Position numbers and translations under genes: made by a program
In this document: positions 21,685 through 49,956 of the stretch, in pieces
Position numbering within the stretch: the first letter of the stretch is position 1
How the letters are laid out: every line of letters starts with the position of its first letter
The notes under the pieces: generated by a model
Told to the model about the DNA's origin: nothing
Databases searched by the model: none
The model's input: the letters and a program-made list of their open reading frames with translations, nothing else
Source: Candidatus Krumholzibacteriia bacterium
Lineage (GTDB): Bacteria; Krumholzibacteriota; Krumholzibacteriia; Krumholzibacteriales; Krumholzibacteriaceae
Direction: 5' to 3'
Length of the DNA: 64,000 bases
Assembly: GCA_963836185.1 (NCBI GenBank)
Contig: CAWIIQ010000002.1
Span: 288,001-352,000 of the forward strand

Positions 21685-21689
21685 GAGCC

Positions 21690-22602: not shown

Positions 22603-22619
22603 CGATAAGGCGGAAGCTT

Positions 22620-24713: not shown

Positions 24714-24734
24714 TCTGGAGCTGAGATACTGATC

Positions 24735-26164: not shown

Positions 26165-26195
26165 ATGACTGCCTGAAAAGGACAGGCTTTAAGAT

Positions 26196-26468
26196 ATGGT
26201 CACCAGCAAGGTCAAGGTCCTCAACAAGACCGGTATACACCTGAGACTCGCCAACCTGATCGTCAATGCCGCCTCGCAGTTCGAGTCGGCGGTGATGCTG
26301 GAGAAGGACGGTCTCGAGGTGAACGCGAAGAGCATGCTCGGAGTGGCGATGCTTGGCGCCGAGCAGGGGGCCGAACTGATGTTGAATATAGATGGAAGCG
26401 ACGAGGAAGAAGCCCTGGATACTCTGACCGGACTGTTCGAGACGAACTTCGGCAGAGAGGTGGTCTGA
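26196..26468 (+). CDS. ptsH: phosphocarrier HPr
   Basis: NKTGIHLR (His15), NAKSMLG (Ser46). Confidence 0.93.
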   Translation: MVTSKVKVLNKTGIHLRLANLIVNAASQFESAVMLEKDGLEVNAKSMLGVAMLGAEQGAELMLNIDGSDEEEALDTLTGLFETNFGREVV

Positions 26469-28279
26469 TGGATCGGATGGATCGCGAGCATATAGAAAAG
26501 ACAGAGATGATATTCGATGGTATCGCCGCGTCGCCGGGGATCGCCTTCGGGGAGGCCTTTGTCCTCAATGTCGAGGACGTTTCGGTCGAAGACGAGCGGA
26601 TCGGCGCCGATATGGTCGAGCCCGAGATCGCGAGGTTCGAGGAGGCCCTAGATGCGACGGAGAAGGAACTCAGGGCCCTTGCCCGCGCCCTCGAAGAGGA
26701 GATGGGGCGGGAGCACGCCAAGATCCTCGATTCGCACGTCATGATGCTCGCCGACGAAGTCATGCGCAAGGACACGATAGATGTTATCAGCACCGAGCAT
26801 GTCTCGGCGCCGTGCGCTTTCCATCGCGTGATCGACAAGACGCTCAGGGCGTTCGACCAGATCGAGGACCAGTACCTCAAGGAGCGGTCAGAGGATGTCC
26901 GAGACGTCAGGCGGCGCGTCATCAGGAACCTGCTCGGCCAGAAGGTCGACGGGCTCGTCAACCTTCGCAAGGAAGCGATCGTCGTCGGGAAGAACCTGAC
27001 ACCGTCCGATACGATGGGATTCAAACGCAAGTATGTGAAGGCCTTCGTCTCGGACATGGGCGGCTCTACCTCCCACGCCGCGATCATGGCCAGGTCACAC
27101 GGCATCCCCGCTGTCGTCGGGGCCGAAGGATTCAGCGCCCACGCCAAACCATACGACAAGCTCATTGTCGATGGAACGGCCGGACAGGTCGTTCTCAATC
27201 CCACCCCCGAGACGGTCAAGCTGTACGAGGTGGCAAGAGAGAGGTTCAAGCTGCTCGAGGCCGAGCTGCTGAAACTGAAGGATTACCCCGCCGTTACGCT
27301 CGACGGCCGAAAGATCGAGCTGTCCGGCAATATAGAGTCTGCCGACGAGCTCGATGACGTTGTCAGTCACGGAGCGAAAGGGATCGGCCTCTTCAGAACG
27401 GAGTACTTCTTCATGGGGCGGGCGACTCTTCCTGGCGAGGAGGAGCAGTACAGGTTCTACTCCGACGTGGTAAAGAGGATCGCGCCCGATCCCGTCATCG
27501 TGAGGACCCTCGATATCGGCGGCGACAAGATCGCCAAGTGGGTCGATGACAGGCCGGAGGAGAATCCCTTCATGGGATGGCGCGGCATCAGGTTTACCCT
27601 TTCGAGAAAAGATATCTTCCGGACCCAGCTGCGGGCGATTTACAGGGCCGCGGCGCATGGCCGGGTCAGGATAATGTTCCCCATGGTATCGGTCGTCGAC
27701 GAGGTCAGGGCGGCTCTGGCTATCTGCGAAGAAGTCAGGGATGACCTGGAGAAGGAGAGATACCAGTACGGCAAGGATGTCGAGATCGGTATCATGATCG
27801 AGACCCCCTCCGCAGTGGCGCTCGCCGACCATCTTGCCAAGGAGGTCGATTTTTTCAGCATAGGCTCAAACGATCTCGTGCAGTATACGCTCGCCGTAGA
27901 CAGGGGCAATTCGCGGATCGCCTATCTCTATGACGAGCTGCACCCGAGCATCGTCAGGATGATCAATGATACGGTGCAGGCTGCGCACAAGAACAACATA
28001 TGGGCCGGCCTCTGCGGCGAGATGACCGCAAGCGCCGGCGTTCACGGAACGCTTCTTCTGATAGGGGCGGGCCTCGATGAGCTCAGCGCTCCCGCTTTCC
28101 TGATTCCCGAGGTCAAGAAGATCATCAGATCCGTCACTTACGATGAGACAAAGACACTGCTCAAGAAAGCGCTGAGGAAATCGACCGCAGCGGAGATACG
28201 GGCGCTTATCGACAAGTACCTCAAGGACAAGAGGCCGCAGCTGCAGGAATTCGCGATAAAGGGTTCGAAACAGGAATAG
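26468..28279 (+). CDS. ptsI: PTS enzyme I
   Basis: GIAASPG, TSHAAIMARS, GLFRTE, RTLDIGGDK, FFSIGSNDL, CGEM. Confidence 0.97.
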   Translation: MDRMDREHIEKTEMIFDGIAASPGIAFGEAFVLNVEDVSVEDERIGADMVEPEIARFEEALDATEKELRALARALEEEMGREHAKILDSHVMMLADEVMRKDTIDVISTEHVSAPCAFHRVIDKTLRAFDQIEDQYLKERSEDVRDVRRRVIRNLLGQKVDGLVNLRKEAIVVGKNLTPSDTMGFKRKYVKAFVSDMGGSTSHAAIMARSHGIPAVVGAEGFSAHAKPYDKLIVDGTAGQVVLNPTPETVKLYEVARERFKLLEAELLKLKDYPAVTLDGRKIELSGNIESADELDDVVSHGAKGIGLFRTEYFFMGRATLPGEEEQYRFYSDVVKRIAPDPVIVRTLDIGGDKIAKWVDDRPEENPFMGWRGIRFTLSRKDIFRTQLRAIYRAAAHGRVRIMFPMVSVVDEVRAALAICEEVRDDLEKERYQYGKDVEIGIMIETPSAVALADHLAKEVDFFSIGSNDLVQYTLAVDRGNSRIAYLYDELHPSIVRMINDTVQAAHKNNIWAGLCGEMTASAGVHGTLLLIGAGLDELSAPAFLIPEVKKIIRSVTYDETKTLLKKALRKSTAAEIRALIDKYLKDKRPQLQEFAIKGSKQE

Positions 28280-30431: not shown

Positions 30432-31577
30432 ATGTCTGAGAAGCATCTTTTTACCTCTGAATCGGTGACCGAGGGACATCCCGACAAGGTCGCGGACCAG
30501 ATATCGGACGCGGTAGTCGACGCTATCCTCGCGGAGGACCCGATGGGACGGGTTGCCTGTGAGACACTGGTCACGACCGGAATGGTATTCATCGCGGGCG
30601 AGATCACGACTGAGGCGTATGTCGCCGATTCCGACGATCGCGCGTGAAGTCGTCCAGCGATATCGGCTATAACGATCCCCACCTGGGATTCGCATCGGAG
30701 ACATCGGCGGTCATCACTTCGATCGATCCGCAGTCCGGCGATATCGCGATGGGTGTCGATACCGGCGGAGCGGGCGACCAGGGGATGATGTTCGGTTTCG
30801 CCTGCACCCAGACCGATGTCCTGATGCCGATGCCTATCCACATGGCTCACCTCCTCGTCAGGAAGATGTCAGAGGTGCGAAAGGGCGGGGTCGACTGGAT
30901 CAAGCCGGACGGCAAGTCGCAGGTCACGATCGAGTATATCGACAACGTCCCGCACAAGATCAATACGGTTCTGCTTTCGACCCAGCACAGCGCCGAGATC
31001 TCTCACGATGAGATCGAGGCCGGAGCTGACAGAAGCTCGTGATCGAGCCGGTCGGCTCGGGCTTCGACATCGATTCATCCGATTACAGGATCCTGGTCAA
31101 CCCGACCGGCGAAGTTCGTCAAGGGTGGGCCCGCAGGCCGACACCGGACTGACCGGAAGGAAGATCATCGTCGACACATACGGCGGATTCGGCAGTCACG
31201 GTGGAGGAGCTTTCTCGGGGAAGGATCCGACAAAGGTCGACCGCAGCGCCTCGTATGCCGCAAGGCACGTCGCGAAGAATATCGTAGGCGCCGGATTCGC
31301 TCGCGAGTGCGAGGTCCAGCTGGCATACGCGATCGGCGTTGCCGAGCCGGTCTCGGTGATGGTCGACACCTTCGGCACAGGCAAGATCAGCGACGAAGAG
31401 CTGACGAAGATCGTCCGCGAGGTCTTCGACCTCACGCCGAAGGGAATCATAGAGAGACTCGACCTGAGACGCCCGATCTACCGCAAGACCGCGGCGTTCG
31501 GGCATTTCGGGCGAGAAGAGGATACATTCACCTGGGAGAAACTCGACTACGTCGACAAGCTCAAGGCAAAAGCATAG
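30432..31577 (+). CDS. metK: S-adenosylmethionine synthetase (several frameshifts near 30630 and 31020-31125)
   Basis: [53 protein letters not shown]. Confidence 0.96.
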
Positions 31578-31589
31578 AAAGGGAAACGG

Positions 31590-32889
<1,300 letters not shown>

Positions 32890-32940
32890 TGACCGGCGCG
32901 GGATCGAAGATCCGTGATCTTGAAAGATCTGTTTATGATG

Positions 32941-33056: not shown

Positions 33057-33155
33057 AACCTGAATAAAGCAGAAAAAGCGTAATGTCAGTATTTTTACCA
33101 CCACCAGTGACGGTAAAAATCCTGCCACTTTCAACAGGTAATCCTTCGTGTTCTC

Positions 33156-33214
33156 TGTGCGGTCTGTCCAGGCGACCTTTTCTGTTTCTGTGTGCGGTCT
33201 GTCCAGGCGACCTT
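33156..33214. repeat. 24-bp perfect direct repeat x2
   Basis: TGTGCGGTCTGTCCAGGCGACCTT at 33156 and 33191. Confidence 0.9.
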
Positions 33215-33232
33215 GTTATGAGCGATATCCAT

Positions 33233-33297
33233 TCAGTCGAGGATCGCGAAGCTATCAGTCGAGGATCGCTAAGCTATCAATCGAGGATCGCGAAGCT
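33233..33297. repeat. 22-bp tandem repeat x3 copying the 3' end of the GWxTD-1 gene
   Basis: TCAGTCGAGGATCGCGAAGCTA / TCAGTCGAGGATCGCTAAGCTA / TCAATCGAGGATCGCGAAGCT. Confidence 0.9.
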
Positions 33298-34459
33298 TGA
33301 TGTCTGCTCCGTGCTTTTCCACTTAGTGCGGTCAGTGACCTTCACCTTCAGCACAAAACGGCCGCTCCAGAGATTGTCGGTATTGATCTCGAGTCTCATC
33401 GGCTGCTGAGAGCCGAACCCGCTAGCCTTGAAGTCGGCGCTGATCCCCGTTTTCTGGTCGACGTAGACGAGCCCCCATCTCTTCTTCTCGGTCGGCGTTA
33501 CGGTGTATTCCACTTCGTAGAACCCGAAGTCCTCCTTGTCCACGTCAAGACCGTAGATCTCGAAATAGAAAGCTATCGGGAATGACTTCCTGTAGAGGTG
33601 AAGCGGATAGGGGATCATGATCAGGTTCCCTTTCCTGTATCTGCTGTTCTCGTCCCCGTCGCTTATTCTTCTGGCGAACTGGATATCGCTTATCGCCAGG
33701 CCGTGACCGCAGGTCAGCCGCTTGTTTGTGCGGAAGACGCCCCTGCTTCCCGATTTCCTGTCGATAGTTTCAAGCCCGAACCTGTAATAGCCAGGGTCAA
33801 GGGTCATGATGATCTGCCCGGGCAGGTATGCCGGTACCCTGGCGTCGTCTGTGTTCGGCACGGAGACCCTCAACAATTCAGCGGCCTCATCTATCTCTTT
33901 CATGTCGAGGCCCCAGACCTTCACGCGCAGTTCCACTTCGCCCTCGAGCCGGGTGCCGGAAGTATCGAACGTTATCTCAGAGACAGGTATCTCAAAGTTG
34001 ATCTCGGTCCTTAATTTGTCTGGTCCCGAGTGGAACGATGTGATGTCAAAGTACGCCTGCATGTCGAAATCGAATCCCGGATAATGGATGAATCTGGTCG
34101 ACATAATCTGATGATGGAAATCATACAGTGCCTTGTCTGCCATGATATATTCATCGGTCACGTTCTTGAATACGGTTTCCCTGATAGCCCATCTGATTTC
34201 AGCATTCCTGACAAAATCGAGAGCATCAGGATTTAATGTGTTTACGGGATCGGTAAGATCCGGATCGATGTGCATTGGAAGGAACTTGAAGCTGACCGCA
34301 TACTCGACCTGTCCCATGACTTTGTCGACCTTACAGCCTGTTGAAGAGGGTCTCCTCGTCGAAGACCTGGTAGTCTTCAGACTTGAGGAAGGAGGCGGCA
34401 GCGAGCATGAGACATGACAAGACCATAACCGACACGTTGTGCGTGTTCAGAAATCGCAT
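33277..34459 (-). pseudogene. GWxTD-family paralogue 1, with the GWxTD domain internally deleted
   Basis: Signal peptide plus EDYQVFDEETLFNRL then a stop (34459-34331); sequence resumes in the C-terminal half (ORF 34317-33277) homologous to paralogue 2. Confidence 0.7.
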
Positions 34460-34502
34460 TGTTACTGATGCCCCTCGGTAACACCCCTCTGTGGTGGGAT
34501 CA

Positions 34503-36338
34503 CTACTCGAGTATAGAGAAACTTGTCACCGTTTCAACCGATTTTCGCGTGCGCCTGTCCATCACGCGGACGCGGAGACGGTAACTTCCTTCCCAGAGGT
34601 CCCTGCTGTCGATCTCGAGGCGCTCGCACTGGGTCGAACCGAACCCCGAGGCGTTGAACTTCGAGCTGATCACCGTACCCATATCCCTGTATATTGGGCC
34701 CCAGCGCTTTTTTTCCGTGGGCGCGACCTCATATTCGATCTCGTAGAGCCCCAGTCCTTCCTTATCCGCATCAAGGCCGTAGATCTCGAAGTAAAAAGCT
34801 ATAGGGAACGATGTCTTATATAGGTGCAGGGGATAGGGGATGACGATCAGGCTGCCCTTCCTGTATCTGCTGTTCTGGTCCCCTTCGCTGATCCTCCTGG
34901 CGAACTGGATATCGCTGAGCGAAAGTTCCTCGCCGCAGGTCAGCCGGCGGGTAGTCCGGAAGACACCCCTGCTTCCGGAGTTGATATCGATCGTCTCGAG
35001 CCCGAACCTGTAATAGCCCGGCTCCAGCGTCAGCAGGACCTGGCCGGGGAGGTAGGCCGGCACCTTCGCGTCTTCTGTATTGGGAACAGAGACCGTGACC
35101 CTCTCTGTCTTTTCAGCGATCTCATCGTATCTCATGTCCCAGACCTTGACCCGCAGCTCCGCATGCGCCTCGAGGTTCGTTCCGCTGGTGTCGAAGGAGA
35201 TTTCGGAGACAGGTATCTCGAAATTCACCTCGGTCCTGAGTTTCCCCTGTCCCGCGTGAAAAGAGGTGATATCGAAGTAGGCCTGCATGTCGAAGTCGAA
35301 TCCGGGGTAATGGATGAACCTCGTCGATATGACCTGGCGATGATATTCATACAGGGCCTTGTCGGACCTGACATATTCATCGGTGACGTTCCTGAATGCG
35401 ACATCCATGAGGCGGTTCCTTGAGACGTCATGGTAACGGATGTAGTCGATCGCGTCGGGATTGAGCGAGTTGCGCGGATCGCTCAGGTCGGGATCGAGAT
35501 ATACCGGGAGAAAACTGTTGATGATGGAAGACTTGCCCAGAGAGTTGTCGGTATGATACATATGCGTGCTCAGGTCCATGACGGGCCGTTCATGGTATAT
35601 CGCCGCGGCCGCGCCTTTTCTTGAAAGGTCCATCGGCCTGTCATAGCCCTGTGCTTCTCTCGGAGTAAAAGTGGGTACTGTCACTGCATCCGCCGTAGAA
35701 TTATTCGGGTGATATATATCGGCCAGTTCCTCGAGGACCATCCTCGAGCTCTTGCCGAAATTGCCGTTGTAATAATCTTCCGTCCAGGATTCGCGGCCGG
35801 CCGCTTCGGAAGAGCGGACAAACTTTCCAGAGAGGTATGCGTCGCTGAAAGTCACCAGCATCGGCGGGGACCAGTAGTACCAGATCTCGGCGGGCCAGCG
35901 TTGCTCAAGCCTGTATACCTCCGACCACACCCTCTTTATCGAATCGGGCATGCCGAATCTTATAAGTGTCTCCCCCCGGTCGTCCCATCCGGGAGGATCG
36001 AAGCAGCCGAATCTTTCGACGGCGAGCTTGACCCTTTCGAAATGTTCCTTCCTACGTTCGTTCTGTCTGGTCGTCGGCGTCGGGTCCATCTCGAGCCAGA
36101 AGCGGCGGAGCCATTCTTCCCTTTCGTCCCGCGTCTCGAGGGAAAGGTATTGTCTCTTCTGATGATCGTTGAGGATATACTGAAGACCGTTGTACCGGAC
36201 TCTCTCCCTGTAGTGGAGCCTGTTGAAGAGAGTCTCCTCGTCGAAGACCCGGTAGTCTTCTGCCTGCAGGAGTGCGGCGGCCGAGATCAAACACAATACA
36301 GCAGCCGCCGCTGCGAAGCGAGCGTGCGGAGTAACCAT
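34503..36338 (-). CDS. GWxTD domain-containing secreted protein, paralogue 2
   Basis: Signal peptide; FWLEMDPTPTTRQNE..EHFERV..GWDDRGETLIRFG.PD..EIWYY; C-terminal Ig-like domains (FYFEIYGL). Confidence 0.85.
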   Translation of the reverse strand: MVTPHARFAAAAAVLCLISAAALLQAEDYRVFDEETLFNRLHYRERVRYNGLQYILNDHQKRQYLSLETRDEREEWLRRFWLEMDPTPTTRQNERRKEHFERVKLAVERFGCFDPPGWDDRGETLIRFGMPDSIKRVWSEVYRLEQRWPAEIWYYWSPPMLVTFSDAYLSGKFVRSSEAAGRESWTEDYYNGNFGKSSRMVLEELADIYHPNNSTADAVTVPTFTPREAQGYDRPMDLSRKGAAAAIYHERPVMDLSTHMYHTDNSLGKSSIINSFLPVYLDPDLSDPRNSLNPDAIDYIRYHDVSRNRLMDVAFRNVTDEYVRSDKALYEYHRQVISTRFIHYPGFDFDMQAYFDITSFHAGQGKLRTEVNFEIPVSEISFDTSGTNLEAHAELRVKVWDMRYDEIAEKTERVTVSVPNTEDAKVPAYLPGQVLLTLEPGYYRFGLETIDINSGSRGVFRTTRRLTCGEELSLSDIQFARRISEGDQNSRYRKGSLIVIPYPLHLYKTSFPIAFYFEIYGLDADKEGLGLYEIEYEVAPTEKKRWGPIYRDMGTVISSKFNASGFGSTQCERLEIDSRDLWEGSYRLRVRVMDRRTRKSVETVTSFSILE

Positions 36339-36440
36339 ATTAATTTTCCCCTGTATCTCCCCGCGGTGGGATCCCTGTCTAAATATAGGGCGATTTGCCG
36401 CCGCTTCAACGACAAATAAAAAAATGTATGTTAATAAGAA

Positions 36441-37991
36441 TTATTCCAGGATGGAGAAGCTCGTCTGTGTTTCAACCGATTTTCTCGTGCGCCTGTCCAT
36501 CACGCGGACGCGGAGGCGGAAGCTTCCTTCCCAGAGGTCTTTGCTGTCGATCTCGAGGCGCTCGTGCTGCGTCGAGCCGAATCCCGAGGCGTTGACCTTC
36601 GAGCTCATCACAGTGGCGACATCCTTGTATACCGGCCCCTCGCGCTTCTTCTCCTTCGGTTCTACCGAATACTCCACTTCCCAGAACCCGAAATCCTCCT
36701 CGTCGAGGTCGAGGCCGTATATCTCGAAGTAGAACTTCACCGGGTCGGGCTTGCGGTAGGCGTGTACGGGGTGGGGGATCACACGCAGCGGCCCCTTGAT
36801 GAAACTTGTCCGTCCGCCCGCATCGGTCGATAGAGCTGGCGAGCTGTATGTCGCTCACGCTGAAGGAATCGCCCATCGCCGTTATATTCCTGCTCGTGAG
36901 AAATACGCCGTGCTTCTTCGATCCTTCGGTCCCTGACCTCGAGGCCGAACCTGTAGTATCCAGGATCGAGGGTGAGGATGAACTGGGCCGGAAGAAGCCA
37001 CGGAGAGTCGGGCTCCGGTTTCTCGGGAAGGTCGATATCGACCACATCCATGCCCGAGACGACCTCTTCCATGTTCAGGTCATATACAGCGACCTTCACC
37101 TCGAAATCTGTCTTGAATCCCTCGCGGACCTTTTCGAAGGTGAGTTCCCTCGCCGGTATCTCGAAGTTGACCTCTGTGCGCACCTTGCCCTGGCCGCCCC
37201 TGAAGTTCGTGATGTCGAAGTAGCAGGGGAGGGGCTGGCGTGCGATGTCGGCCGTGTGAAAGTGCCTGTTGTGCTCGAGATTCGAGTAGAAGTTCAACAG
37301 CTGCGGGGCTCGCCGGAGAAGAACAGGTCATAGACGTTCGAGCTGGAGTAGTGTCATCGACTCGAGGCAATCACTGTAATAGTCATCGAGCTCTCGGTAA
37401 GGATATTGTGGTCGTTATCCGTCCTTACCTCCATGAAGTAGATCATGCTCTCCGCTGAGATTCACGTCCTCGAATGGGACGACCATGCCGAGCCTGGGAT
37501 AGTGCCAGACCTCTCCCGGCATCTTGATGTCCTCGGCGCTGTTCTGGTTGCTTGGTGCGTCGAATCCGCCGATATTCCCGGGGATGTCGGCTATGACACG
37601 CAGGTTTGCCGAACCTGATCAGAGTCTCGCCGCGGTGGTCCCAGCCGGGAAAGCCTTCCTTCGGGTACTGCTCCCTCGCGTCCTTCACCCGCTGCTCGTG
37701 CTCGATCCTTCGCTCGTTCTTCCTGGTGGCCGGTGTCGGGTCGTTCAGTTTCCAGAACCTCGCTATCCAGTCGTCGCGTTCTTTCCTCGTCGGAGTCTTC
37801 AGATAGTGCAGCTTCTGGTAATTGTTCATCAGGTAGCGCAGCCCTTCGTAGCGGCGCTTCTCGTACCGGTCGAGCTGGCTGAAGAGCTCTTCCTCGTCGA
37901 AGGGGACATCGTATCCTTCAGCCGCGATGGCTGAGGGGAGCATGCAGGCAAGCAGGACGATCAGGATCAGATATCTCAAAAAGGCGGACAT
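36441..37991 (-). CDS. GWxTD domain-containing secreted protein, paralogue 3 (several frameshifts)
   Basis: FWKLNDPTPATRKNE..EHEQRV..GWDHRGETLIRFG; YFDIT.F..RTEVNFEIP; LDPGYYRFG; FYFEIYGL; ends SFSILE across split ORFs. Confidence 0.8.
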
Positions 37992-38038
37992 CGACCGTGC
38001 CTTTCGCTGAACGGAGATATATACAGGCGGCGGGGTCC

Positions 38039-39666
38039 CTACTCCAGTATAGAGAAGTTGGCGATCTTTTCAACAGATTCACGCGTCCGGCGGTCCTTTA
38101 CGGTGATGATCAGCCTGAACGAGCCTTCCCAGAGGTTGCCGGTCGCTATCTCGAGCCGCTGCGGTTGAGTCGAACCGAACCCGCTCGCCTCGAACTTCGA
38201 TTCGACGGCGGTATCCATCTCCTCGAGGGTCAGCCCTGTTTTCTTCTTCGAGACAGGGACGACCCGGTACTCGACCTCGTAGAGGGCGAATCCCTCCTCG
38301 TCGGTATCGAGGCCGTAAATCTCGAAATAGAAAGTCAGGGGGTAGGGGATCCTGTAGGCGTGGAGGGGATGGGGGACGACCTGAAGGTTCCCCTTCTGGT
38401 ACCTGACGGTCTTGTCGACCTGCGTGATCGTGCTGGCCAGCAGGATATCGCTCAGGGCGAGTCCCTTGTCCATGGGCGGGAGCTCGACGTTCGCCCGGTA
38501 GACGCCCATCCTTCCCGACTTGAGGTCGTGCGCTTCGATACCTATCCGGTAGTAACCCGGATCGAGGGTGACGGCGACCTGCCCGGGGATATACGACGGC
38601 CCGTCGAAGGTCTGGCCCCCTTCCTGGGTCGCGCCGGTGAATTCGGAGGCGGACGCGACTTCCTTCATGTCGATGTCGCGGACCATCACGCTCAGTTCCA
38701 CACCCGCGCTCAGGATGCCGTCCCTGCGTTCGAAGACGAGCTCCCTGGTCGGCACCTCGAAGTTGACCTCGGTGCGGATCTTGCCTTCTCCCGCGTTGAA
38801 CGAGGTGATGTCGAAGGCGACGGGGAGGAGGTCCTCGTCCATCTCGAACGAATAGATCGTCGGTTTGTCCTCGAGATACATGTAGAAGTTGTTCTTCGAT
38901 TCGCGGAGCTGGTCCTGCCTGACGACGTCCTCGAAACTCCTCGTCGCGAGCTGCGCCCTGAGGTCGGGGGAGGCGACGTAATCGATATTGTCGGGATTGA
39001 AGTTCTTCAGCGCCATCAGCGCGGAGCCCTGGTCGAGCTGCATCTCCTCGATCGGCACAAGCTTCGAGTGCTCGGAGACGGCCCTCATCTTGTCGAGCGT
39101 CTCTCTCGCCGACATCGCCTGCGGCTCGATCGCGAATATATGTATGCCGTTGAGGTTGAAGTCGTGGAAAAGTATCGTCATGTCGAGCCTGTAATAGTAC
39201 CACATCTCGCCGGGGGGCAGCATCCTGTAGAAGCCGATGTTTGCCGGGAAGTGCGACCGTACCCCGGGCCATCCCCACCTGATGAGGCATTCGCCCCTTT
39301 TGTCCCAGCCGGGCGCCTTCTTCATGCCGAACTCGCCGCGGGCGAGCCTGACCCTCAGGTCGTGCTCTATCCTGCGCTCGTTCTCGCTGGTCGCCGGCGT
39401 CGGGTCGTTCATCGCCCACCACCGCTCGAGCCATTCGTCCCGCCCGGCCCTCGTCGGCTGGGAGAGGTAATGACGTTTTTCATGGTCATTCAGCGAGTAG
39501 CGGAGGCCGAAGTATGTGAGCCTCTCCTCGGGTTCGATCTTTCTGAGGAGGTCGTTCTCTCCCTTGAAGTCCTCGGAACGCGCGGCGGGCAGGCGCAGAG
39601 ATGCGAGGAGGATCAAGATTGTGATGGCACTGTACGTTATATCGGTATTTCTCAGTCTCGGGGCAT
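38039..39666 (-). CDS. GWxTD domain-containing secreted protein, paralogue 4 (ATG at 39666 needs one frameshift)
   Basis: WWAMNDPTPATSENE..EHDLRV..GWDKRGECLIRWG..EMWYY; same C-terminal domains; ends NFSILE. Confidence 0.85.
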
Positions 39667-39705
39667 GAACGGGATATCAATATAATAAACATTGTTACTT
39701 CTTTC

Positions 39706-40785
39706 CTACTTGTTCGCCCTCCACAGCAGGACGGCTCCGAGGAGGACGAATATGATATTGCCCATCCAGGCGCCGAGCAGGGGGTGAAGCACACCGCTGT
39801 GCCCGAGCGACTGGCCGACGCGCAGGATCCCGTAGTACATGAAACTTATAAGCAGTGTCAGCCCGAACCCGGTGGCCATCGACGGCTTTCTTTTCGCCGA
39901 GGACAGGGCCACCCCGATGATCGCGAAGATAAAGGCTGTAAACGGGAAGCTGAACTTGAAGTATAGATCGACGAGGTACTTGTCGATTGCGCCCCCGCCC
40001 CTTCTGATCTTGTCGATATGCTCTCTCAGCTCGAGGAAGTTCATCTCCTCGGGAGTGATCTCCTCCTTGGCGATGTCTTCCGGTCTCTCGGGAAGGTGGG
40101 GCATCTCCATCCTCTGGAATGTCGTGACCGTCTCGCCGGCCTCCTGGAAATCCCTGACCGCCCCATCCATGAAGACCCATTTCGAGCCGTCCCAGAAAGC
40201 CTTCTTGGCGTCTACGCGGCGGACGAGCTTCGCGTCCTCATGCTCGTGCAGCGCGACATTGAGCAGCACGCTCAGCTTGATGTCGTATCTCTCGGCGTAC
40301 CAGGTCCGGTTGCCTTCGCCCTGGTAATGAAGGTTCTTCCTGTACTTGAAGCTGTCACTTTCCCTGCTCCCCTTGATATCGACCGACATTATCTTGTCGG
40401 CCCGCCGATTGGCGTAGGGTACGATGAATTCGCTGAAGACAAGCGAGGCAAGGCTGATCAGCAGGGCGGAGAGAAGTATCGGCCTCGCTATCCTCGTCAG
40501 GGGCATTCCCGCCACCACCAGCGCGGTGAGCTCGTTTTCCCGCGACAGCCGTCCGAGTGTAAACACGGTCGAGAGAAGGACCGAGATCGGCATCGTCAGG
40601 AGAATTATCCATGGGAGCTGAAAGAGGTAGTACGACGAGACCTCGCCCATCGTCGCCTTGCTGTCGTAGTAATCGTCAGATTTTTCGCTGAGGTCGACTG
40701 TGACATAGATCACCGTAAAGGCGATGAAGCCTATGATCAGGTTTCTCCAGAACCCTCCGAGTATATAGCGATCGTGGATCCTCAC
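39706..40785 (-). CDS. lptG: LPS export permease LptG (YjgP/YjgQ family)
   Basis: DRYI, RENELTA, three TM + jellyroll + three TM, AWMGNIIF. Confidence 0.88.
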   Translation of the reverse strand: MRIHDRYILGGFWRNLIIGFIAFTVIYVTVDLSEKSDDYYDSKATMGEVSSYYLFQLPWIILLTMPISVLLSTVFTLGRLSRENELTALVVAGMPLTRIARPILLSALLISLASLVFSEFIVPYANRRADKIMSVDIKGSRESDSFKYRKNLHYQGEGNRTWYAERYDIKLSVLLNVALHEHEDAKLVRRVDAKKAFWDGSKWVFMDGAVRDFQEAGETVTTFQRMEMPHLPERPEDIAKEEITPEEMNFLELREHIDKIRRGGGAIDKYLVDLYFKFSFPFTAFIFAIIGVALSSAKRKPSMATGFGLTLLISFMYYGILRVGQSLGHSGVLHPLLGAWMGNIIFVLLGAVLLWRANK

Positions 40786-40831
40786 GGCTGGTATTTACCC
40801 CTGGAAAAGCACGAGGTTCCCTGCTGTCGGG

Positions 40832-42232
40832 TTACAATATACCCGCAGCGCGCTTCTGCCGCCAACGTTTTAAGATGTTAAAGCGGTCCCAGTTGATAGT
40901 CTGCGACTCGCGGACGGTGCTCCAGAGGAGCAGCCCGGCGGCGCCGAGGAGGACGATATTGGGGAGCCACATCGCGAGCCAGGGCTCGAGCACCCTCCTG
41001 TCGGCGAGTTTTTCCCCGGTGATCAGGAAGACGTAGTAGACGAGGAAGAAGATGATAGAGAAGGAGATCGACATCGTCATCCCCTTCTTTCCCGACCTGA
41101 TGGCGAGCGGAGCGCCGAGCAGGACGAATATCAGGCAGCTGAACGGTATCGAGTATTTCTTGTGGATCTCGACCTCGTACCTCGATATCTGCTGATCGAG
41201 GCCGGTGATCCTTCTCATTATCGTCTCGAGCGCATACATCTGCTGCTCGGCGGGATTTTTGGCGTTCTGCTGAGCGCGCTGTTCGGCACGGCTCGTCGGG
41301 GGTTCGGGCGCCTCCCGGGCTTCGCCCTTGAATGCGTCGAAGGCCATCACTCTCGAGAGGTTCCCGACCATATCCTTCTCGGCGCTGATGTGCATGTCCC
41401 TGCTGTAGCCGGCTATCTCCCCCTGCAGCTGCCTGACCTTTTCGCGCATCATCCCCCCGCTCATCTCGCGGTCCCCCCGGTACGAGCGCCGGGAGCGCGC
41501 GAGTCCACGGTCGGTATCCTTTATGTTGATCGTGAAGTTGCTGAAAAGGGTCTTCCTGTATGTCGAGATGTCGGACGGGTCGGGCATCTCGTGTATCTCT
41601 CCATCCTGGAGCTCGAATCTGAGGACATTCTCCGACTCGATGAACGACATCCTGCCCCGGTCGGCGACGATAGTCGTGGGCACCATCCCTTTCTTGGTGC
41701 GGAAGATCTGTACATCCTCGATCTTTCCCGTCTTGTCGTCTTTCTCCCTGACGAGGATCGTGTAGCCATCGACGGCCGAACTGAAGATGTTTTCCTTGAT
41801 CTCGAGGGTCGGTTTCATCTTTCCGATATCGAGCATCAGGTTCATCAGCCGGTGGTTGGCCTCGGGGAGGATGATGTTCTGGTAATAGACGAGGCCGGCG
41901 CCGAGGAAGAGGGAGGCGATGATGACCGGGGCTATCATCCGGTAGAGGGAGACCCCCGTCGCTCTCATCGCCGTGACCTCATTTTCGGAGGCGAACTGGC
42001 CGAAAGCCATTAGGGTAGCGGGCATTACAGCCATTGGAATGATTAATGCGAACATATGACCGAGGCTGAGGAAAAAGAATTCGAGAACGACGAAGAATCC
42101 GACTCCTTTGTCTATAAACATATCGAGATAACGGATGATGAAATCCATGATAAATATGAAGGTGATTATGATGATACTGAAGAGATACGGAGGTATGTGG
42201 CTCTTCAGTATGTATCGATCAAGTATGTACAT
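40832..42232 (-). CDS. lptF: LPS export permease LptF (YjgP/YjgQ family)
   Basis: LDRYI, SENEVTAMRATGVS, EIHKKYSIPF, AMWLPN. Confidence 0.88.
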   Translation of the reverse strand: MYILDRYILKSHIPPYLFSIIIITFIFIMDFIIRYLDMFIDKGVGFFVVLEFFFLSLGHMFALIIPMAVMPATLMAFGQFASENEVTAMRATGVSLYRMIAPVIIASLFLGAGLVYYQNIILPEANHRLMNLMLDIGKMKPTLEIKENIFSSAVDGYTILVREKDDKTGKIEDVQIFRTKKGMVPTTIVADRGRMSFIESENVLRFELQDGEIHEMPDPSDISTYRKTLFSNFTINIKDTDRGLARSRRSYRGDREMSGGMMREKVRQLQGEIAGYSRDMHISAEKDMVGNLSRVMAFDAFKGEAREAPEPPTSRAEQRAQQNAKNPAEQQMYALETIMRRITGLDQQISRYEVEIHKKYSIPFSCLIFVLLGAPLAIRSGKKGMTMSISFSIIFFLVYYVFLITGEKLADRRVLEPWLAMWLPNIVLLGAAGLLLWSTVRESQTINWDRFNILKRWRQKRAAGIL

Positions 42233-42572
42233 GACAACAGCTTAGTTTAAAGTAAATCTTCCGGCGCGTCGCGGATCGTACCTTTCGGTCAGGTGCAACG
42301 ATCGTTCCGGCGGCGCCGGCCGGAAGTGATGAAATAACGGATATCCGGCCTGTCCGCTCCCCTGGTCGCTTGATAAAAGAGGCCTCAAGGGGATTTCTAT
42401 ACCTGTACCCGATAGTGGACAGGACAGGTGTATTCTGTCCCCGTAACGGGACATCGCCGAGCCCCATTCGAACCGGCAGTCAGCCGGGCCGACGGCGCTT
42501 TCATCGCCCGGTAATTTATCACATATCCGCGTGCGGATGACAGCCTATTCTGAATGCTTGCCCGGAGGGTAA

Positions 42573-45500
42573 GTGATGACGCCCGGACCGGACAGAAAAG
42601 AGAACCGGAGAGATAAGCTGCGGCGGAGTGCGCTTTCGACGGCGCTGCCTCTCCTTGTCCTCGCTCTTCTGTCTCCGCCCGCCGCCTCCCAGGCCAACGA
42701 TCCTGTATACCTGCTCGAGATCGACCTCCTGAAGATGTCCGATCAGCTCGATGTCCGCTACAGGTGGGCCGAGACAGGAGTGCTGCCCCCTGAATATATA
42801 CTCCTGGGCGACCCCGAAGGTGCCGTATTCATGTACCCCTCCTTTCTCAAACCGGAAAAGGAGTTCAGGAAGAATTACACCGAATACGATCCCGTCTCCG
42901 GCCAGCTCTACAGTTTTCAGGTGCCGGGGTACCAGATGTTTTCAAAGAAAGCGGAACGGTCCGGCCCCTATTTCATCGAGACCGGAAGGCCGATGGATGT
43001 CGAAGGGATGAAGATATCGATCACATCGATCGATCATCAGGCGGACGACCTTTGGAAGGAAGGGCTCCGGGTGGTCTGGGTGGACGATGTCAAGTATGCC
43101 CTTTCGACGAGAAAATCGTCACGCGGCGGCAGGGGCGGGCTGATCGATATCAATATCCCGATCTCGCTTCCGAAACAGCTCGAGGCGATCTTCGGCCGAG
43201 GCGAAGAGACGAGACTGACCGTGTCGGGAAGGGAAAAGATCACTATCGGCGGTACTTCGCGCTGGTGCGCCAACTGCCCCCGTACCGAGGGAATGCCCCA
43301 GCAGCAGAAGTTCCCCGACCTCGAGATGGAGCAGCAGCTCACAGTCAACCTCCACGGGACGATCGGCGAGAAGATCAACGTGGCGATCGACCATTCGAGC
43401 ATGGGTGGGGGAGCGCCGTCGACGAACAGGATCAGGCTGAACTACACCGGGTTCGACGACGAGATCATCAAGCTTATCGAGATGGGCGACACCGACCTGA
43501 CCCTTTCAGGAGCGCAGCTGATCAGTTACTCGGGACAGGCGAAGGGTCTCTTCGGCGTCAAGGGCGTCGCCCAGATCGGCCCGATCGACCTGACGGTCAT
43601 AGCGAGCAAGGAGGAGGGCGAGTCTTCCTCGGGCACCTTCTCGGCAACGGGAGGCCAGAGCAGCGAGATCTCCATAAACGATTACGCGTACATCAAGAGA
43701 CAGTTCTTCTATCTCGAATCGCCCGGCGATGACTACCAGGCCCCCGGGTTCGGAACTATATACCCGGTGATCGGCGGCTACGACAGTCTCGAGGTCTTCG
43801 CGTCCCTTCGGCCGGATCTGGAATGGAACAACTTCAGCCCGAAGTATTACATCAAGGCGTGGACGGATCCGGGAAACACGGGGGACCTGTACCTGGGGGA
43901 GAGTTTCGCGCAGTGGTTCTACCTGCTTGTAGAGGGGAGGGATTACGACCTGATACAGGTCTACGGGGGGGAAAGCACCACGCCTAAATATCTTGGTATA
44001 AGGCTGAGGCAGCCCCTTGGAGAAAACAGGGCGCTCGCTGTAAGGTACAAGATGGACCTGGGCAACGGCGATCATACGGTAGTAGGAGATTATAATTATT
44101 TCCCGCCCCTGCCCGACACACTGGTCGTAGTCCCCGACGAATCGACGTGGATAACAGCCGAGCTCATCTGTCCTCCCGAGGACGATTTCCTGCCTTCGTC
44201 CGTTCCGGGCGCGAAGTACACCTCGACATGGAACATGATGTTCAGAAACGTCTACTCGATCGGCCTGAGCGGACTCGATGACGCAGCCATAAATGTGAAG
44301 ATCAGGGATCGCAGAACGGTCATCGGCACAGCCGAAATAAACGATTTCTCGAACGAGAGCTACCTGAGGATATTCGGCCTCGACCGATACAAGTCGACGG
44401 GGGCATGGGGGGAGGACGGATTTGTCGATAACAGGCAGGGTGTGATCGACTTCAACGATGGATATATCATGTTCCCATCGTATCGTCCGTTCGATATCAC
44501 CGAGTACGAACTGCAGAGGTATTTCAGTGAATCCGAGAACAATATTTCGAGCGATCCTGAACTGATAGCATCGGTGGAGGCCCTCAGCGACACGCTGAGG
44601 AGAAACAGCTCGATATACAATGAGATCCTCGACAAGAACAGCCCGGCCAACGAGTACGAGATAATCATCGAGGCATCGAGCGGAAACCGCGTGTTCAACC
44701 TCGCCGCCTTCGACATACTCGATGGAACGGAAGTCGTCATGGTCGATGGTGTGAGGCTCTCAAGGGGCTCCGACTACGACATCGACTATATCGGCGGTTC
44801 GGTGACCCTCAAGGGTGATTACGCCAACCTGCCTCCCGATGCGAGCGTGAAGATCGATTATCAGCACAAACCTCTTTTCGGCGGGGGTAAAAGCTCGCTG
44901 CTCGGCATCGGAGCCAACCTCTACCTCTCGGAGAACGCGAGGATCAACGCTACATACCTGTATAACTCGGTAGGCGCCCCTAAATACAGGCCCAGGCTCG
45001 GAGAGGAACCGACACGGAACATGGCCGGTGATATCAACGGATCGTTCCAGTTTCAGCCGGGATGGATGACGTCTCTGGCTAACATGCTCCCCATGGTCAA
45101 TACCGACGCGGCAAGCAGCCTGAGCCTGACCGGTGAGATAGCGATGAGCATCCCCAATCCCAATACGAAGGGAGAGGCCTATATAGACGACATGGAGGGG
45201 GTCGAGGACAGCGATCAGATCAACCTCGTCCGCGCCCAGTGGTACGAGGCCAGCCCCCCGATAAGTCCCCTCGATTCAGTGACCGTGCTTCCTCCTCTGC
45301 CGCCGGAGAAGGAATTTTTCTGGTACAACCCGGCCAACACCAACGAGCAGCAGTTTCTGACGACGAGCAAGAAGGATCTCAATCCGAACCTGGACGACCG
45401 GGAGAACTCGAGGCAGACCTCGATGTTTATCAAGGCCTGGGAACCGGATCTCAACCAGTGGTCGGGGATCATGACGGGATTTACAGGCGGGATCGATCTT

Positions 45501-48500
45501 TCTACGTCGCAGTACATCGAGATATGGGTCAACGACTATACGGTGGACCAGGATGACAGGCGGGGAGTGCTGCATATCGATTTCGGAAAGATCGATGAGG
45601 ATTTCCATCAGCCCGAGTTGAACCGGCACGACAACGAGAACGCTATCAACTGGACGAACGAGGCCGACACCGGGTTCGTCGGCGAAAAGTATGAAGATAG
45701 GCCGTTCAACAGGGATTTCAACGAGGACAAGTTCGACGAGGTCATGGGCGTATACATGTGGATCAACTCGAGGTTCGGGAACTCCAGGGCTGACAACGAG
45801 GACATGAACGGGAACGGCCGCCTCGATGAGAGCAACGAGTACTATACCATCGCGCTCGACCTCGCTGACACGGCGATAATCGATGTACAGAGGGATTTCT
45901 CCGGGGTCACCGAATACTGGAATGATCCCGAGAAGGGATCGATCAACAGGCAAAAGAGCTGGAGGATGTACAGGCTCGATATCACCAAGGCGGCGCGGAT
46001 GGGCGACCTGGCTCCCAGGCTCGACAAGATCTCCCATATGAGGATCTGGGTGGAGAACATCGATCAGGTCCAGGCGATCACGCAGACTGACAGGTCCCCC
46101 GATAACATGGTTGAGATCACAGGGGTCAAGTTCGTCGGCAGCAGGTGGGAGTACAACAATGTAAGGGACCTTGCCAATCATGAGGTCCCGATCAATCCCG
46201 ATACCCTGGACCCCGCCCATGAAGGTCAATCTGGGGACGATAAACAACAAGGACAACCCTTCGATCTACACGACGCCATATCCGCCCGATGTCGAGGAAG
46301 GGATACAGAACCGCGAACAATCCCTGCTGTTCGCGGTCGAGAACTTCCATCCGGGCTATTCGTTCAAGTCGATGAAGCGATTCTTCGGGGCAGGGCCTGA
46401 GTTTCATGCAGTACGAGGAGATCCAGTTCTTCATCCGCCCTGACAACGACCTTGTCGGCGGAGTGGCAGAGCAGGACAGTATGGAGTTCTTCCTGCAGAT
46501 CGCATACGACAGCCTCAACTATTATGAGATGGCCATACCCCTCAAGGACGCGCTGGCGAACAAATGGCAGTGGGTCAACATACGGATGAGCGACCTGACG
46601 AACATGAAGATCGACGCGGTGCCCGGCAAGATAACCGAAAAGGAGATCACCGATACGGCCGATCCGTCAATGACATATATGGGGAGGCTCCGGGGCGATC
46701 CCAGCCTGTTCAGGGTGAGATTTCTGTTCGCCGGGATCAGGTATCCTCGCGGAGAAGAAAGGGCGAAGGGTACTCTGTGGTTCAACGACATCGCCCTTGG
46801 ATGGGTGCGCAAGGATATCGATCATGCGGAAAGGGTCGGCTTGTCGGCGAGTTTCGCCAATGTATTGTCATTGAATGCCAGCTACCAGAGGACCGGCCCC
46901 GAGTTCAGGTCGCTGAAGCAGAAGGCAGGAAGCGGCACGACGAGCGACAATTTTCTCATGTCGGGCAAGACCGAGATCAATCACATCATCCCGACACTCG
47001 GGTTCACTATCCCTATCACCGGGAAATACAGCAAGTCGCAGTCGAAGCCGAAGTATCTCTCGCAGAGCGACGTGGAGATTGCCGACGAGGCGGTCCAGGA
47101 ATCGCAGAAGACGATAAGAAACAGTTACTCATACAGTCTCTCAATGAGCAGGCGCGGTTCGAAGAACCTGATAATGAAGCACCTGTTCGACAATCTCAAA
47201 GCGGGCGCCAGTTACTCGAAGTCCAACCTCGCATCGCCGACGGTGCTGGATACGTCGTGGTCATACAGCTGGAACACGAACTACCAGATCCAGTTCAGCA
47301 AGGACCGGAAGCTGAATCTCTTCAAGGGAATCGGTTTCAGGTACTGGCTCACGAGCTTTTCCTACAACGCGGCCGGCTCGAAGGCTCTGAAGAACACATA
47401 TTCGTACAACGGTGAAAGGTATATCAAGAGCCCGACAGGATTCTCGCACAACTGGAACAACGAGATGTCGATGAGCTACGATCCGTTCGAGTCGATCAAG
47501 ATCAACTTCCGGAGGAACGAAAAACGGAACATGATGAATTACCGGGAGTTCTACGGAATTCCCATCGGAAAGCTCTACGACTACAGGGAGAGCTTCGAGT
47601 TTCAGTACCAGCCTCGCGGACAGGTGTGGCTGCTCTCGCAGTTCAACCCGAGATTCGAGTATACATCGCGATACGGAGAGAACCTCAATCCGAGTTTGAG
47701 AGGGCCCGGCGATCCCGAAGACACGAGAAACGTCAGCAGCGAGAGACAGATCAATGTCGTCTTTGATGTCGACATCGGTGGATACGCCATCGATTTCGGT
47801 AAGTTGATCAGGGTGTTCGGTGAAGACGAGACGGCAGTGAGTATGCCAGGATCTTCCGGCGCCACGCTTGACAAGCAGAAGGAGGATTTCAGGAGCAAAT
47901 TCGACGGCAGGGTGAAGTCGGACCAGGGGGAAGGCCTGGGCGAGAGAAAGTCGCTTGTCGATGATGCTCCGCAGCAGGAGCCGCCGCCAGAGGGGCAGGA
48001 AGAAGGTGAACAGGAAGAGAAGAAGGGCGCCTACTCGGATCTGATGGTCCAGAAGCCGCGAGGGGAGATAGCCGGGCTGGGACAACCGAAGACAGACGAG
48101 GAGAAGGCCGCCGAGGCGGATACGATCAAGAAACCGAGGGGGGACTCCTGGAGACTGGTCAAAATGGCCCTGAGGTTTGTCGGCAGGATAGATCCGATAA
48201 AGAGCGCTATCCGTATCGATGACAGGAGCAGCTATCAGCGTCTGTACGAGAGGGCGAGCCTCGCTTACCGTTTCGGTTTCGACCGTGGATCGGGCGTGAT
48301 CGGTTCCTCGTGCACTGAGGAAGAATGTTCGCCTGAGAACGATCCGAACAGAGCTTCGAAGAGGATCAATCTCGATCTCAGGTCGGGCCTCGACCTGACC
48401 AGCAACATCTCGGCCGATATACGCTTCAATATGTCGAGGAACACCGATGAGGCCGATGCCAGGTTGACTGAGTCCGAGAACATGACCTGGCCCGACATAG

Positions 48501-49046
48501 CCGTGAACTGGAAGGGCCTGGAGAACTGGGGGCTGCTCAGAGGACTGGTGAAATCGCAGCAACTTCACTATCAACTATATAAGGAAGACGACGAAGAGTA
48601 TCGCGGTCGACAGGCAGGAATTACGCGTTGAGTCCCAACTGGAGCCTTACCTGGAAGAACACGCTCTCGACGAACCTGTCGTTCTCATTCAGCAAGCAGA
48701 CGAAGATCGAAAAGAACCAGGAGATCTGGGACCAGACATGGTCGGGTAATCTCGAGCTGCGCTACGACATCAAGGGATCGAAAGGGCATATCGATACCCG
48801 GACTCGGCAGCAGGCTGTCGTTCGAAAGTAACTTTGACCACGGTACTTAACCTCGGTTACAGTTCGACGGAGAGCCATAATCTGCCTGCGTCGACTGTCT
48901 TGACGGTCTCTCCCCGTTTCACATATACTTTCAGCCGGAATATTTCGGGAAGCCTGACGCTCAACTACAGGAGGGTGGCAGGCGGCAGGTACGGGTACAT
49001 CAACCACGAGGTCGGGCTTCATGCATCCGCGGAATTCAAATTCTAG
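42573..49046 (+). CDS. sprA: SprA/Sov-like giant outer-membrane beta-barrel (type IX secretion translocon), ~2150 aa, split by frameshifts near 46215, 46395, 48555-48625 and 48785-48835
   Basis: SprA N-terminal signatures (QLTVNLHGTIGEKI, IRLNYTG.DDEIIK.IE.G, GLFGVK..QIG), EIAMSIPNPNTKGEAYIDDMEG, YIEIW, LHIDFGKIDED, long amphipathic strands, terminal AEFKF. Confidence 0.85.
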
Positions 49047-49050
49047 TACA

Positions 49051-49956
49051 TTGCGGAGGCTCGTCTCATCGGCGCCCTTCCTGACCGCAGTAGTCCTCAC
49101 CGCTTTTACAAGCTGCGGTTCCGGCAGCGTGCCGGAGTTCGACAGCGAGTCAGCGTTCACTTTTCTCGAGGAGCAGGTCGATATCGGATTTCGCTACCCG
49201 GGCTCTCCCGAGCATACGCGGCTGCAGAGGTACCTGACAGACAAGCTGCGGGATTTCGGCGCTGATGTCTCCCTTCAGCCGTTCGACGCTGTGCTGACGA
49301 CCGGAGATACGCTGCACCTGATCAACATCATCGGTAATTACAACAAGGGGGCATCGAAGCGGATCATGCTCGCCGCCCATTACGATACCAGGCCGTTCGC
49401 CGACCGGGATCCCGATCCCGCGAATCGCGACAAGCCGATCCACGGAGCTAACGATGGAGCGAGCGGAGTCGCCGTCCTGCTCGAGATAGCGAGGCTTCTC
49501 GGAAACCACGAACCGCCCGTCGGAGTAGACATCGTCCTTTTCGATGGAGAGGATTACGGCAGGGAAGGTTCGCCGGCCGACTATTGTCTCGGTTCGGGCC
49601 ACTTTGCCAGGAGGCTGAGGGGGTACAAACCGTCGGCTGCGATCGTGATCGACATGATCGGAGACAGTGATCTGGAGATTCCAATGGAGGGGTACTCGAG
49701 GGCCGCTTCGCCCGCCCTCCTCGGTGAGCTGTTCGATATCGCAGATCAGCTTGGTTACGAGCAGTTCAGCAGGAAAAAGCTCGGCGCCATAATAGACGAC
49801 CATCTGCCCCTGATACAGGCTGGCGTCAACGCTGTCGACCTGATCGATTTCGAATATGAATACTGGCACACCCTCGAGGACACTCCCGACAAGTGTTCGC
49901 CCGGATCGCTTGAAGCTGTCGGGAATGTGCTTCTGCACTACATCTGGCGGCAGTAA
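49051..49956 (+). CDS. M28-family lipoprotein, glutaminyl-peptide cyclotransferase-like (TTG start)
   Basis: Lipobox FTS-C-G; AHYDTR, GANDGASG, FDGEDYG, DMIGD, DDHLP, YWHT..D. Confidence 0.85.
   Translation: MRRLVSSAPFLTAVVLTAFTSCGSGSVPEFDSESAFTFLEEQVDIGFRYPGSPEHTRLQRYLTDKLRDFGADVSLQPFDAVLTTGDTLHLINIIGNYNKGASKRIMLAAHYDTRPFADRDPDPANRDKPIHGANDGASGVAVLLEIARLLGNHEPPVGVDIVLFDGEDYGREGSPADYCLGSGHFARRLRGYKPSAAIVIDMIGDSDLEIPMEGYSRAASPALLGELFDIADQLGYEQFSRKKLGAIIDDHLPLIQAGVNAVDLIDFEYEYWHTLEDTPDKCSPGSLEAVGNVLLHYIWRQ

Follow-up and report, generated by a model that had tools for sequence, protein, structure and literature searches.

Why should the gene for the pore of a protein secretion machine stand back to back with genes for the export of lipopolysaccharide (LPS), and why should these in turn run into a series of genes of the GWxTD family? 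The question is raised by a locus in a 64,000-nt stretch of the genome of Candidatus Krumholzibacteriia bacterium (assembly GCA_963836185.1, contig CAWIIQ010000002.1); we call this whole stretch the window, and coordinates are window positions. The system for type IX secretion (T9SS) has been studied almost only in the Bacteroidota, where its proton-driven GldLM/PorLM motor is held to be essential, and the neighbors of the translocon gene sprA in the T9SS model organisms differ from those found here, which are lptFG and a glutaminyl cyclase gene. In the literature searched there was no paper on the GWxTD family, spurious matches aside, and none that joined the Krumholzibacteriota with type IX secretion. 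Here we describe the conservation of the sprA-lptFG-GWxTD arrangement, which is far beyond chance, and weigh what the GWxTD proteins might do; tentatively, we favor a role beside the LPS extractor. The elements of the locus are listed below from the secretion genes to the far end of the GWxTD array.

49021..49956, forward strand: glutaminyl-cyclase-like M28 lipoprotein gene, 311 aa (PF04389, 118 bits)
42573..49046, forward strand: sprA, the T9SS translocon gene, ~2157 codons (TIGR04189: first piece 329 bits, second piece 107 bits)
42233..42572, no strand: divergent spacer of 340 bp, with a GTGGAC motif (42415-42420) and a TGTCCCC/GGGACA inverted repeat (42436-42453)
40832..42232, reverse strand: lptF, 466 aa (PF03739, 279 bits; TIGR04407, 201.1 bits against a cut-off of 230)
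39706..40785, reverse strand: lptG, 359 aa (PF03739, 290.9 bits; TIGR04408, 228.8 bits against an equivalog cut-off of 240)
38039..39616, reverse strand: GWxTD gene adjoining lptG, 525 aa as read (TIGR04514, 41.3 bits)
36441..37991, reverse strand: GWxTD gene in four frame pieces, with signal peptide (TIGR04514, 52.5 bits on the first 182 aa)
34503..36338, reverse strand: GWxTD gene, 611 aa, with signal peptide (TIGR04514, 69.4 bits, residues 51-155)
34331..34459, reverse strand: 42-codon N-terminal remnant of a fourth copy (signal peptide and first mature residues), ending in a stop; intergenic sequence resembling the N-terminus of the 611-aa gene
33277..34317, reverse strand: fourth array gene, 346 aa, without a GWxTD domain and without a Pfam or NCBIfam match

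The conservation of this order was examined across the phylum. LptF was located in 150 of 151 genomes, and about 20 kb around it was taken from 60 genomes representing nine families (labelled f1 to f9), onto which the window proteins were mapped by tblastn. These relatives are kin rather than independent samples, and hence the counts show conservation and not statistical association. The divergent orientation of sprA and lptF-lptG was found at every one of the 60 loci, and the M28 gene follows sprA (at least 100 bits) at 47 of them; the 13 misses consist of four contig ends, one broken locus, all four f5 loci and four of the seven f4 loci. A GWxTD gene stands directly after lptG and on its strand at 28 of the 30 loci in f1, f2, f3, f7 and f9, the two misses being one contig end and one broken locus. 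In f4, f5, f6 and f8 none of the 30 loci has it, and the genes behind lptG are unrelated and often on the opposite strand. Where the array is present it consists of one copy in most genomes, of two in four and of three in three. A second sample, drawn from a species collection, gave the same order wherever the contig reaches lptG, but it overlaps the first and is therefore not independent. The linkage of GWxTD genes to sprA and lptFG, which a first-pass annotation of the window had proposed as an undescribed envelope or secretion module, is thus a property of related genomes as well.

Within the array itself the sequence suggests an intimate connection to lptG. The gap of about 40 bp reported earlier between lptG and the first GWxTD gene has to be corrected to 89 bp, measured to the first usable start, and the gap between lptF and lptG is 46 bp. 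No terminator-like site was seen between lptG and the array, and promoter-like matches there are at chance level, so the search for a signal that would isolate the array from lptG found none. Among the orthologues of the first array gene, a signal-peptide start could be called, by a crude rule, in 24 of 26; it lies −4 to 180 nt from lptG in 23 of these 24, and three of them show a 4-nt overlap between this start codon and the stop of lptG. We infer that the array belongs to the lptFG transcription unit and that LptF, LptG and the lptG-linked GWxTD proteins are made together.

The first-pass annotation had counted four tandem GWxTD paralogues. Three of them do carry the domain above the TIGR04514 cut-off of 28 bits; the fourth, at 33277-34317, does not reach it and has lost the domain. 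(The Pfam model PF20094 remains below its own cut-off on the array, with 22.7 against 26.9 bits.) Over 336 aa the protein of the fourth gene shares 67.6% identity with residues 276-611 of the neighbor of 611 aa and is thus a copy of the C-terminal, two-sandwich half of that protein. Because this half matches the neighbor and a signal-peptide remnant precedes it, the GWxTD domain of the fourth copy was probably lost by an internal deletion. The gene at 38039-39616 is orthologous to the conserved gene that comes first behind lptG and is 84% identical to congeneric orthologues that bear signal peptides, though its 5' end seems disturbed in this assembly. The gene at 36441-37991 changes frame near 37560, 36922 and 36800, and a tblastn search with an intact congeneric orthologue spans 38003-36444 in the same number of pieces, four. 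Two repeats lie at the far end of the array: three tandem copies spaced by 22 bp at 33220-33297, which overlap the stop of the last array gene, and a 29-nt direct repeat at 33151-33214, whose copies are 97% identical and 35 nt apart.

Such frame breaks call for caution in reading the window, which comes from a genome of 6 contigs and 3.5 Mb that is 92.5% complete. They also hit housekeeping genes, two of which are truncated and two split in two:

6086-6871: fumarase gene, truncated
8564-9946: pyrG, truncated
30644-31577: metK, split in two
31590-32892: ahcY, split in two

In congeneric genomes the array genes are intact, at 69-84% identity, and sprA is a single open reading frame (ORF) of 2163-2179 aa. 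Because housekeeping genes are broken in the same way and congeners have intact ORFs, the breaks are likely to be assembly indels rather than decay; the domain-less fourth copy alone looks like a true remnant.

Both lptF and lptG pass the PF03739 cut-off of 27.9 bits by a wide margin, and each scores best with its own equivalog model, though both equivalog scores fall just under the cut-off. LptF contains about 100 extra residues (about 245-355) that come after the jellyroll region and before the fourth membrane helix; these are charged and probably helical. In matches from all nine families the LptF query was, in most cases, aligned over nearly its full length. The comparison with the LptB2FG-LptC-LptA-LptDE bridge of E. 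coli is instructive: the LptF/LptG pair, LptC and LptB are all encoded in the window and LptE elsewhere in the genome, outside it, whereas here one to four GWxTD genes lie inside the lptFG operon and LptF has the additional, periplasmic residues just described. A second LPS block, 22 kb upstream at 7587-17737, contains kdsB-like and kdsD-like (SIS plus CBS) genes, a lipid A acyltransferase gene, lptC and lptB, with no lptA in the lptC-lptB interval. The model PF03968 (LptA/LptD N-terminal) found nothing here, a result that says little since it also missed a Bacteroides control. We had considered that GWxTD proteins might replace LptA and dropped this idea: no Lpt jellyroll is among their fold matches, and PF03968 is as silent here as in the Bacteroides control.

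On the other side of the spacer, the read-through of sprA comes to about 2157 codons, and its score exceeds the TIGR04189 equivalog cut-off of 200 bits, in agreement with the SprA/Sov homologue of about 2150 aa that had been called in the first pass; it belongs to a lineage outside the Bacteroidota, the Krumholzibacteriota, which are related to the Fibrobacterota-Chlorobiota-Bacteroidota (FCB) group. The gene is broken into four frame pieces, the reading frame changing near 46221, 46395 and 48560, and comparison with relatives places its end near 49046, where it overlaps the start of the M28 gene. A phmmer search relates the window protein to solved chains named SprA (6h3j, 6h3i) at E 4.7e-27. 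The genome has no second sprA locus.

The M28 protein, which has a lipoprotein-like N-terminus (Cys after a hydrophobic stretch), is glutaminyl-cyclase-like, as had been proposed, by its best solved relatives, although some of these are named otherwise: they are bacterial chains called glutamine cyclotransferase, putative exopeptidase or leucine aminopeptidase (E 4.9e-57 to 6e-51, near full length), those called glutamine cyclotransferase lying at E 6.5e-57 to 6e-51. It thus resembles the type II glutaminyl cyclases of the Bacteroidota in its similarity over the full length to solved glutamine cyclotransferase chains and in its lipoprotein-like start; it differs in that its gene is coupled to sprA, as in the 47 relatives counted above. 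In the Bacteroidetes “Q-rule” papers, type II glutaminyl cyclases are tied to exported proteins (PMC5837995, PMC10653852), and one of them states that not all of the FCB group follows the rule (PMC5837995). In our genome, by a crude count, Gln comes behind an AxA-like site in 12 of the 63 tailed proteins whose signal peptide is recognizable, against 97 of 1179 other ORFs, a modest enrichment obtained by a rough method.

The divergent spacer between lptF and sprA, estimated earlier at about 340 bp, measures exactly 340 bp. Its nucleotide identity to four congeners is 88-92%, against 74-85% in the flanking genes, and outside the genus it is not alignable. In f1, f2, f4, f5 and f6 the sprA-sense strand carries, at a distance of about 180 nt from the start of lptF, a recurring motif: TG(T/A)(A/C)C, about six T-rich bases, and GTGGAC. 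Of 61 stretches examined, 30 contain the GTGGAC hexamer, in a few cases inside sprA, and none of these is from f8 or f9; behind the motif, f1, f4 and f5 have a TGTCC..GGACA inverted repeat. Operator, promoter part and RNA hairpin are all candidate readings of this repeat. With regard to the last, there was no Rfam match to the spacer, its folding z-scores (-1.8 and -1.4) are not significant, and five near-identical sequences contain one compensatory pair; with regard to promoters, no TGG-N9-TGC site of the sigma-54 type is present in it. The conservation of the spacer fits a shared control region, without establishing co-regulation.

Could the module be a minimal T9SS in its own right, as was suggested when it was first noticed? 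The premise of that suggestion holds, in that PorK/L/M/N, PorV and Plug gave no family match among the 53 window ORFs scanned with Pfam and NCBIfam models. The genome as a whole answers otherwise. It encodes PorU (554 bits, cut-off 420), an adjoining PorV gene (PF19572, 60.8 bits, over the Pfam cut-off) with a tailed M6 peptidase gene alongside, three further PorV-like barrels and 106 matches to the type A cargo tail; because these lie elsewhere in the genome, the module is not a self-contained T9SS. PorU is present in all 61 genomes of the phylum that were searched and exceeds its cut-off in 58. The motor is another matter. This genome yielded no match for GldL, GldM or GldN, and the 61 genomes none for GldM, with models that also hit none of 14 control genomes; GldK gave only partial matches of at most 92 bits against a cut-off of 350, and its model, too, hit no control genome. 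Since the motor models hit no control, these results mean “not found with these models” and are not proof of absence. In sum, the resemblance to the T9SS of Flavobacterium johnsoniae and Porphyromonas gingivalis consists of a SprA above the curated cut-off, PorU, PorV and type A tails; the differences are the missing GldL/GldM/GldN matches (with models that have no positive control), the weak and partial GldK, and the pairing of sprA with lptFG and the cyclase gene.

Two observations on the secretion system may be added. The only other T9SS-flavored match in the window is a 392-aa ORF at 1207-2385 with OMP_b-brl_2 (PF13568, 33 bits), a family that also includes PorT. A common mature N-terminus, HA / x-W-(V/I)-E-(N/D)-G, stands immediately behind the signal peptide in about ten tailed cargo proteins, which suggests a paralogous cargo family. 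A region of a different character, at 20716-28279 of the window, carries genes for HPr kinase, the mannose-family phosphotransferase components IIA/IIB/IIC/IID and enzyme I around a GH57 alpha-amylase/glucanotransferase gene.

What, then, are the GWxTD proteins? Their orthologues have ordinary cleavable signal peptides and not lipoboxes. The T9SS type A tail (TIGR04183 / PF18962) gave no match in the array proteins at E ≤0.01, and a tail profile built from this genome scored -0.6, -0.7 and -1.9 bits on three of them, the lptG-adjacent protein not being among these three. Because they have signal peptides, no lipobox and no T9SS tail, they are predicted to be soluble periplasmic proteins. The possibility raised at the outset that they are T9SS cargo has accordingly been rejected, no C-terminal sorting domain being found at that threshold and the tail-profile scores of three proteins being negative.

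An AlphaFold2 model of the lptG-adjacent protein, based on 35 sequences, reached a predicted local distance difference test score (pLDDT) of 85.1 and a predicted template modelling score of 0.76. It has three parts: an alpha-plus-beta GWxTD domain (residues ~20-160), a helical linker and two beta-sandwiches (262-380 and 385-525). The sandwiches resemble many immunoglobulin-like (Ig-like) and carbohydrate-binding-module-like domains. For example, a GH2 Ig-like domain is matched at Z 12.2; the O-antigen-binding domain of Wzt (6o14) is matched at Z 11.1, with a root-mean-square deviation of 2.5 over 108 aligned residues, a result tied with those of many unrelated sandwiches, and RbmA and transglutaminase barrels are also among the matches. 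With the whole model, Foldseek and VIA-align returned generic beta-sandwich matches only. Folded alone, the GWxTD domain reached pLDDT 88.9 and found no solved structural relative, its best Foldseek E value (0.27) and best VIA Z score (4.9) being at noise level. Its core contains 23 residues that are invariant in the 35 sequences.

Sequence searches of the PDB with the lptG-adjacent, 611-aa and 346-aa proteins, and with the 35-sequence profile, gave nothing meaningful (best single E 0.067). The Plug protein of F. johnsoniae, which we take to be in entry 6h3j, is the chain that a gate or plug function would bring to mind; at E values up to 10 the SprA Plug chain gave no sequence match to these three array proteins or to the profile, and no T9SS chain is among the fold matches listed, which generic sandwiches filled. 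A profile search for fused forms retrieved 281 proteins at E ≤1e-5; all 120 matches listed belong to one orthologue group of a 520-580 aa type without Pfam domains and, where named, are called only “GWxTD domain-containing protein”. The family occurs in 150 of 151 genomes of the phylum.

The genome of our bacterium has six GWxTD matches, and those outside the array provide a useful comparison. The principal one is a second cluster:

1-19015 of another contig: TonB-dependent receptor, 776-aa tailed protein, PorV-like barrel, GWxTD, ExbD, TolC, ATP-binding cassette (ABC) exporter, GWxTD

The 776-aa protein beside the PorV-like gene ends in a T9SS tail (E 1e-8 to the tail profile built from this genome). 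Parts of the cluster are present in all ten relatives checked, from f1, f4, f5, f6, f7, f8 and f9: TolC, the ABC ATPase, ExbD and the second GWxTD gene in each of the ten, the first GWxTD gene in nine and the PorV-like gene in eight. In f6 this pair makes up the whole complement of GWxTD genes. The proteins of the two loci are of distinct types. Those of the second cluster have the domain at residues 300-450 and a remainder unlike the lptG-linked type, whereas the array proteins combine an N-terminal GWxTD domain with two sandwiches, have lptG as their partner gene and are confined to part of the phylum. To judge from these distributions, the lptG-linked array appears to be a clade-specific addition to an older second cluster. 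Elsewhere in the genome a GWxTD form fused to tetratricopeptide repeats (TPR) stands alone, and in some relatives GW4-like paralogues are found beside tailed cargo genes; one f9 genome has such a GW4-like gene (686 aa) behind genes for a TolC-like protein and a TPR histidine kinase, far from lptFG (7965-11602 of its stretch). The GWxTD domain is a module at the ends of several envelope-transport operons.

The reading that we prefer, although we would not put it as high as an even chance, is that the lptG-linked GWxTD proteins are periplasmic accessories of the LptB2FG LPS extractor and not T9SS cargo. It rests on their operon membership, on their being coupled to lptG in five families and on the parallel of the GWxTD gene that closes the ABC exporter operon, which is found at the second locus in all ten genomes. 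Produced along with LptF and LptG, the GWxTD proteins would act in the periplasm on LPS leaving the extractor, and their C-terminal sandwiches, as modelled, are predicted to bind its glycan. The pairing of sprA with lptFG might then co-ordinate the pore and the capping of cargo with the supply of the lipid that anchors T9SS cargo in the Bacteroidota studied. T9SS cargo of P. gingivalis is anchored to a lipopolysaccharide, and a coupling of LPS and T9SS is therefore plausible. Several findings weigh against such a role. Four of the nine families keep sprA-lptFG with no GWxTD gene at any of their 30 loci, and the GWxTD protein is hence not a core part of the Lpt machine. The number of array copies varies from 1 to 3, with a remnant in addition here, a pattern more in keeping with substrate-specific adaptors than with a fixed subunit. 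GWxTD genes outside the array adjoin T9SS items, namely a tailed cargo gene with a PorV-like gene and, for the GW4-like paralogues, tailed cargo genes again. Finally, the fold matches of the modelled sandwiches are generic.

The T9SS neighbors of these other GWxTD genes favor a second possibility, which we consider nearly as likely although, taken by itself, it is still improbable: the GWxTD proteins could be periplasmic partners of SprA and PorV-like barrels that hold or deliver tailed cargo or gate the pore, their placement behind lptFG reflecting only co-regulation with sprA through the spacer between them. The distance from the array to the genome's single sprA gene is within 3 to 9 kb, and at the second cluster a GWxTD gene comes directly after the PorV-like gene, itself after the 776-aa tailed protein, here and at the loci of eight of ten relatives; the proximity of GW4-like paralogues to tailed cargo genes in some relatives points the same way, and a varying copy number is to be expected of cargo-specific adaptors. 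Moreover, since GldM was found in 0 of 61 genomes (with a model without positive control) and PorU in 61 of 61, a missing periplasmic T9SS component is plausible. Against this, the array is on the lptFG strand and not on that of sprA, and four families have sprA but no array at this site. Each genome holds about 100 tailed cargo genes, so that chance should place some of them next to GWxTD genes. The GWxTD proteins encoded beside PorV-like genes differ in architecture (domain at 300-450) and have only the domain in common with the array proteins, which in turn show no sequence match to any solved T9SS chain.

It is less probable, though by no means negligible, that GWxTD is a general periplasmic module of many envelope transport machines (TonB-dependent receptors, TolC-ABC exporters, Lpt and T9SS), binding, for instance, some shared envelope component, and that the lptG-linked copies have no role specific to Lpt or SprA. 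One genome offers four contexts for the domain (after lptG, after a PorV-like gene by a TonB-dependent receptor gene, after TolC-ABC by ExbD genes, and fused to TPR), combined in them with different partner domains, and the core residues remain invariant across 35 sequences. Yet the coupling to lptG, tight to the point of overlapping stop and start codons and kept in five families, seems to exceed a loose association, and no ligand or fold relative backs any particular shared target.

The roles at LptB2FG and at the SprA/PorV-like barrels are not mutually exclusive. It is conceivable, if rather unlikely, that the GWxTD proteins are the missing periplasmic component of a motor-less type IX route and form a bridge from LptB2FG to the SprA/PorV barrels, cargo export and the lipid anchor of the cargo then being delivered together; if true, this would explain why sprA and lptFG have been kept back to back in the phylum. 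That the array is merely decaying, a set of pseudogenes left by duplications, is very improbable: one copy has three frameshifts, another lacks the GWxTD domain and the 5' end of the first is disturbed, but essential genes in the same window are broken alike and congeners carry intact orthologues.

What is new here is the conserved operon link between lptG and GWxTD genes, limited to five families, together with a structure model for the protein. Every genome sampled in this phylum retains the pore and the sortase of the T9SS along with many genes for tagged cargo, while the motor was not detected with models that lack a positive control; the gene for the pore is wired to the LPS export genes and to a putative N-terminal capping enzyme, and GWxTD genes close three different envelope-transport operons. 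The candidate pairs are GWxTD with LptF/LptG, with SprA and with the PorV-like barrels. Identification of the partner would provide a function for a widespread family, and it might show how these bacteria couple or power their secretion.

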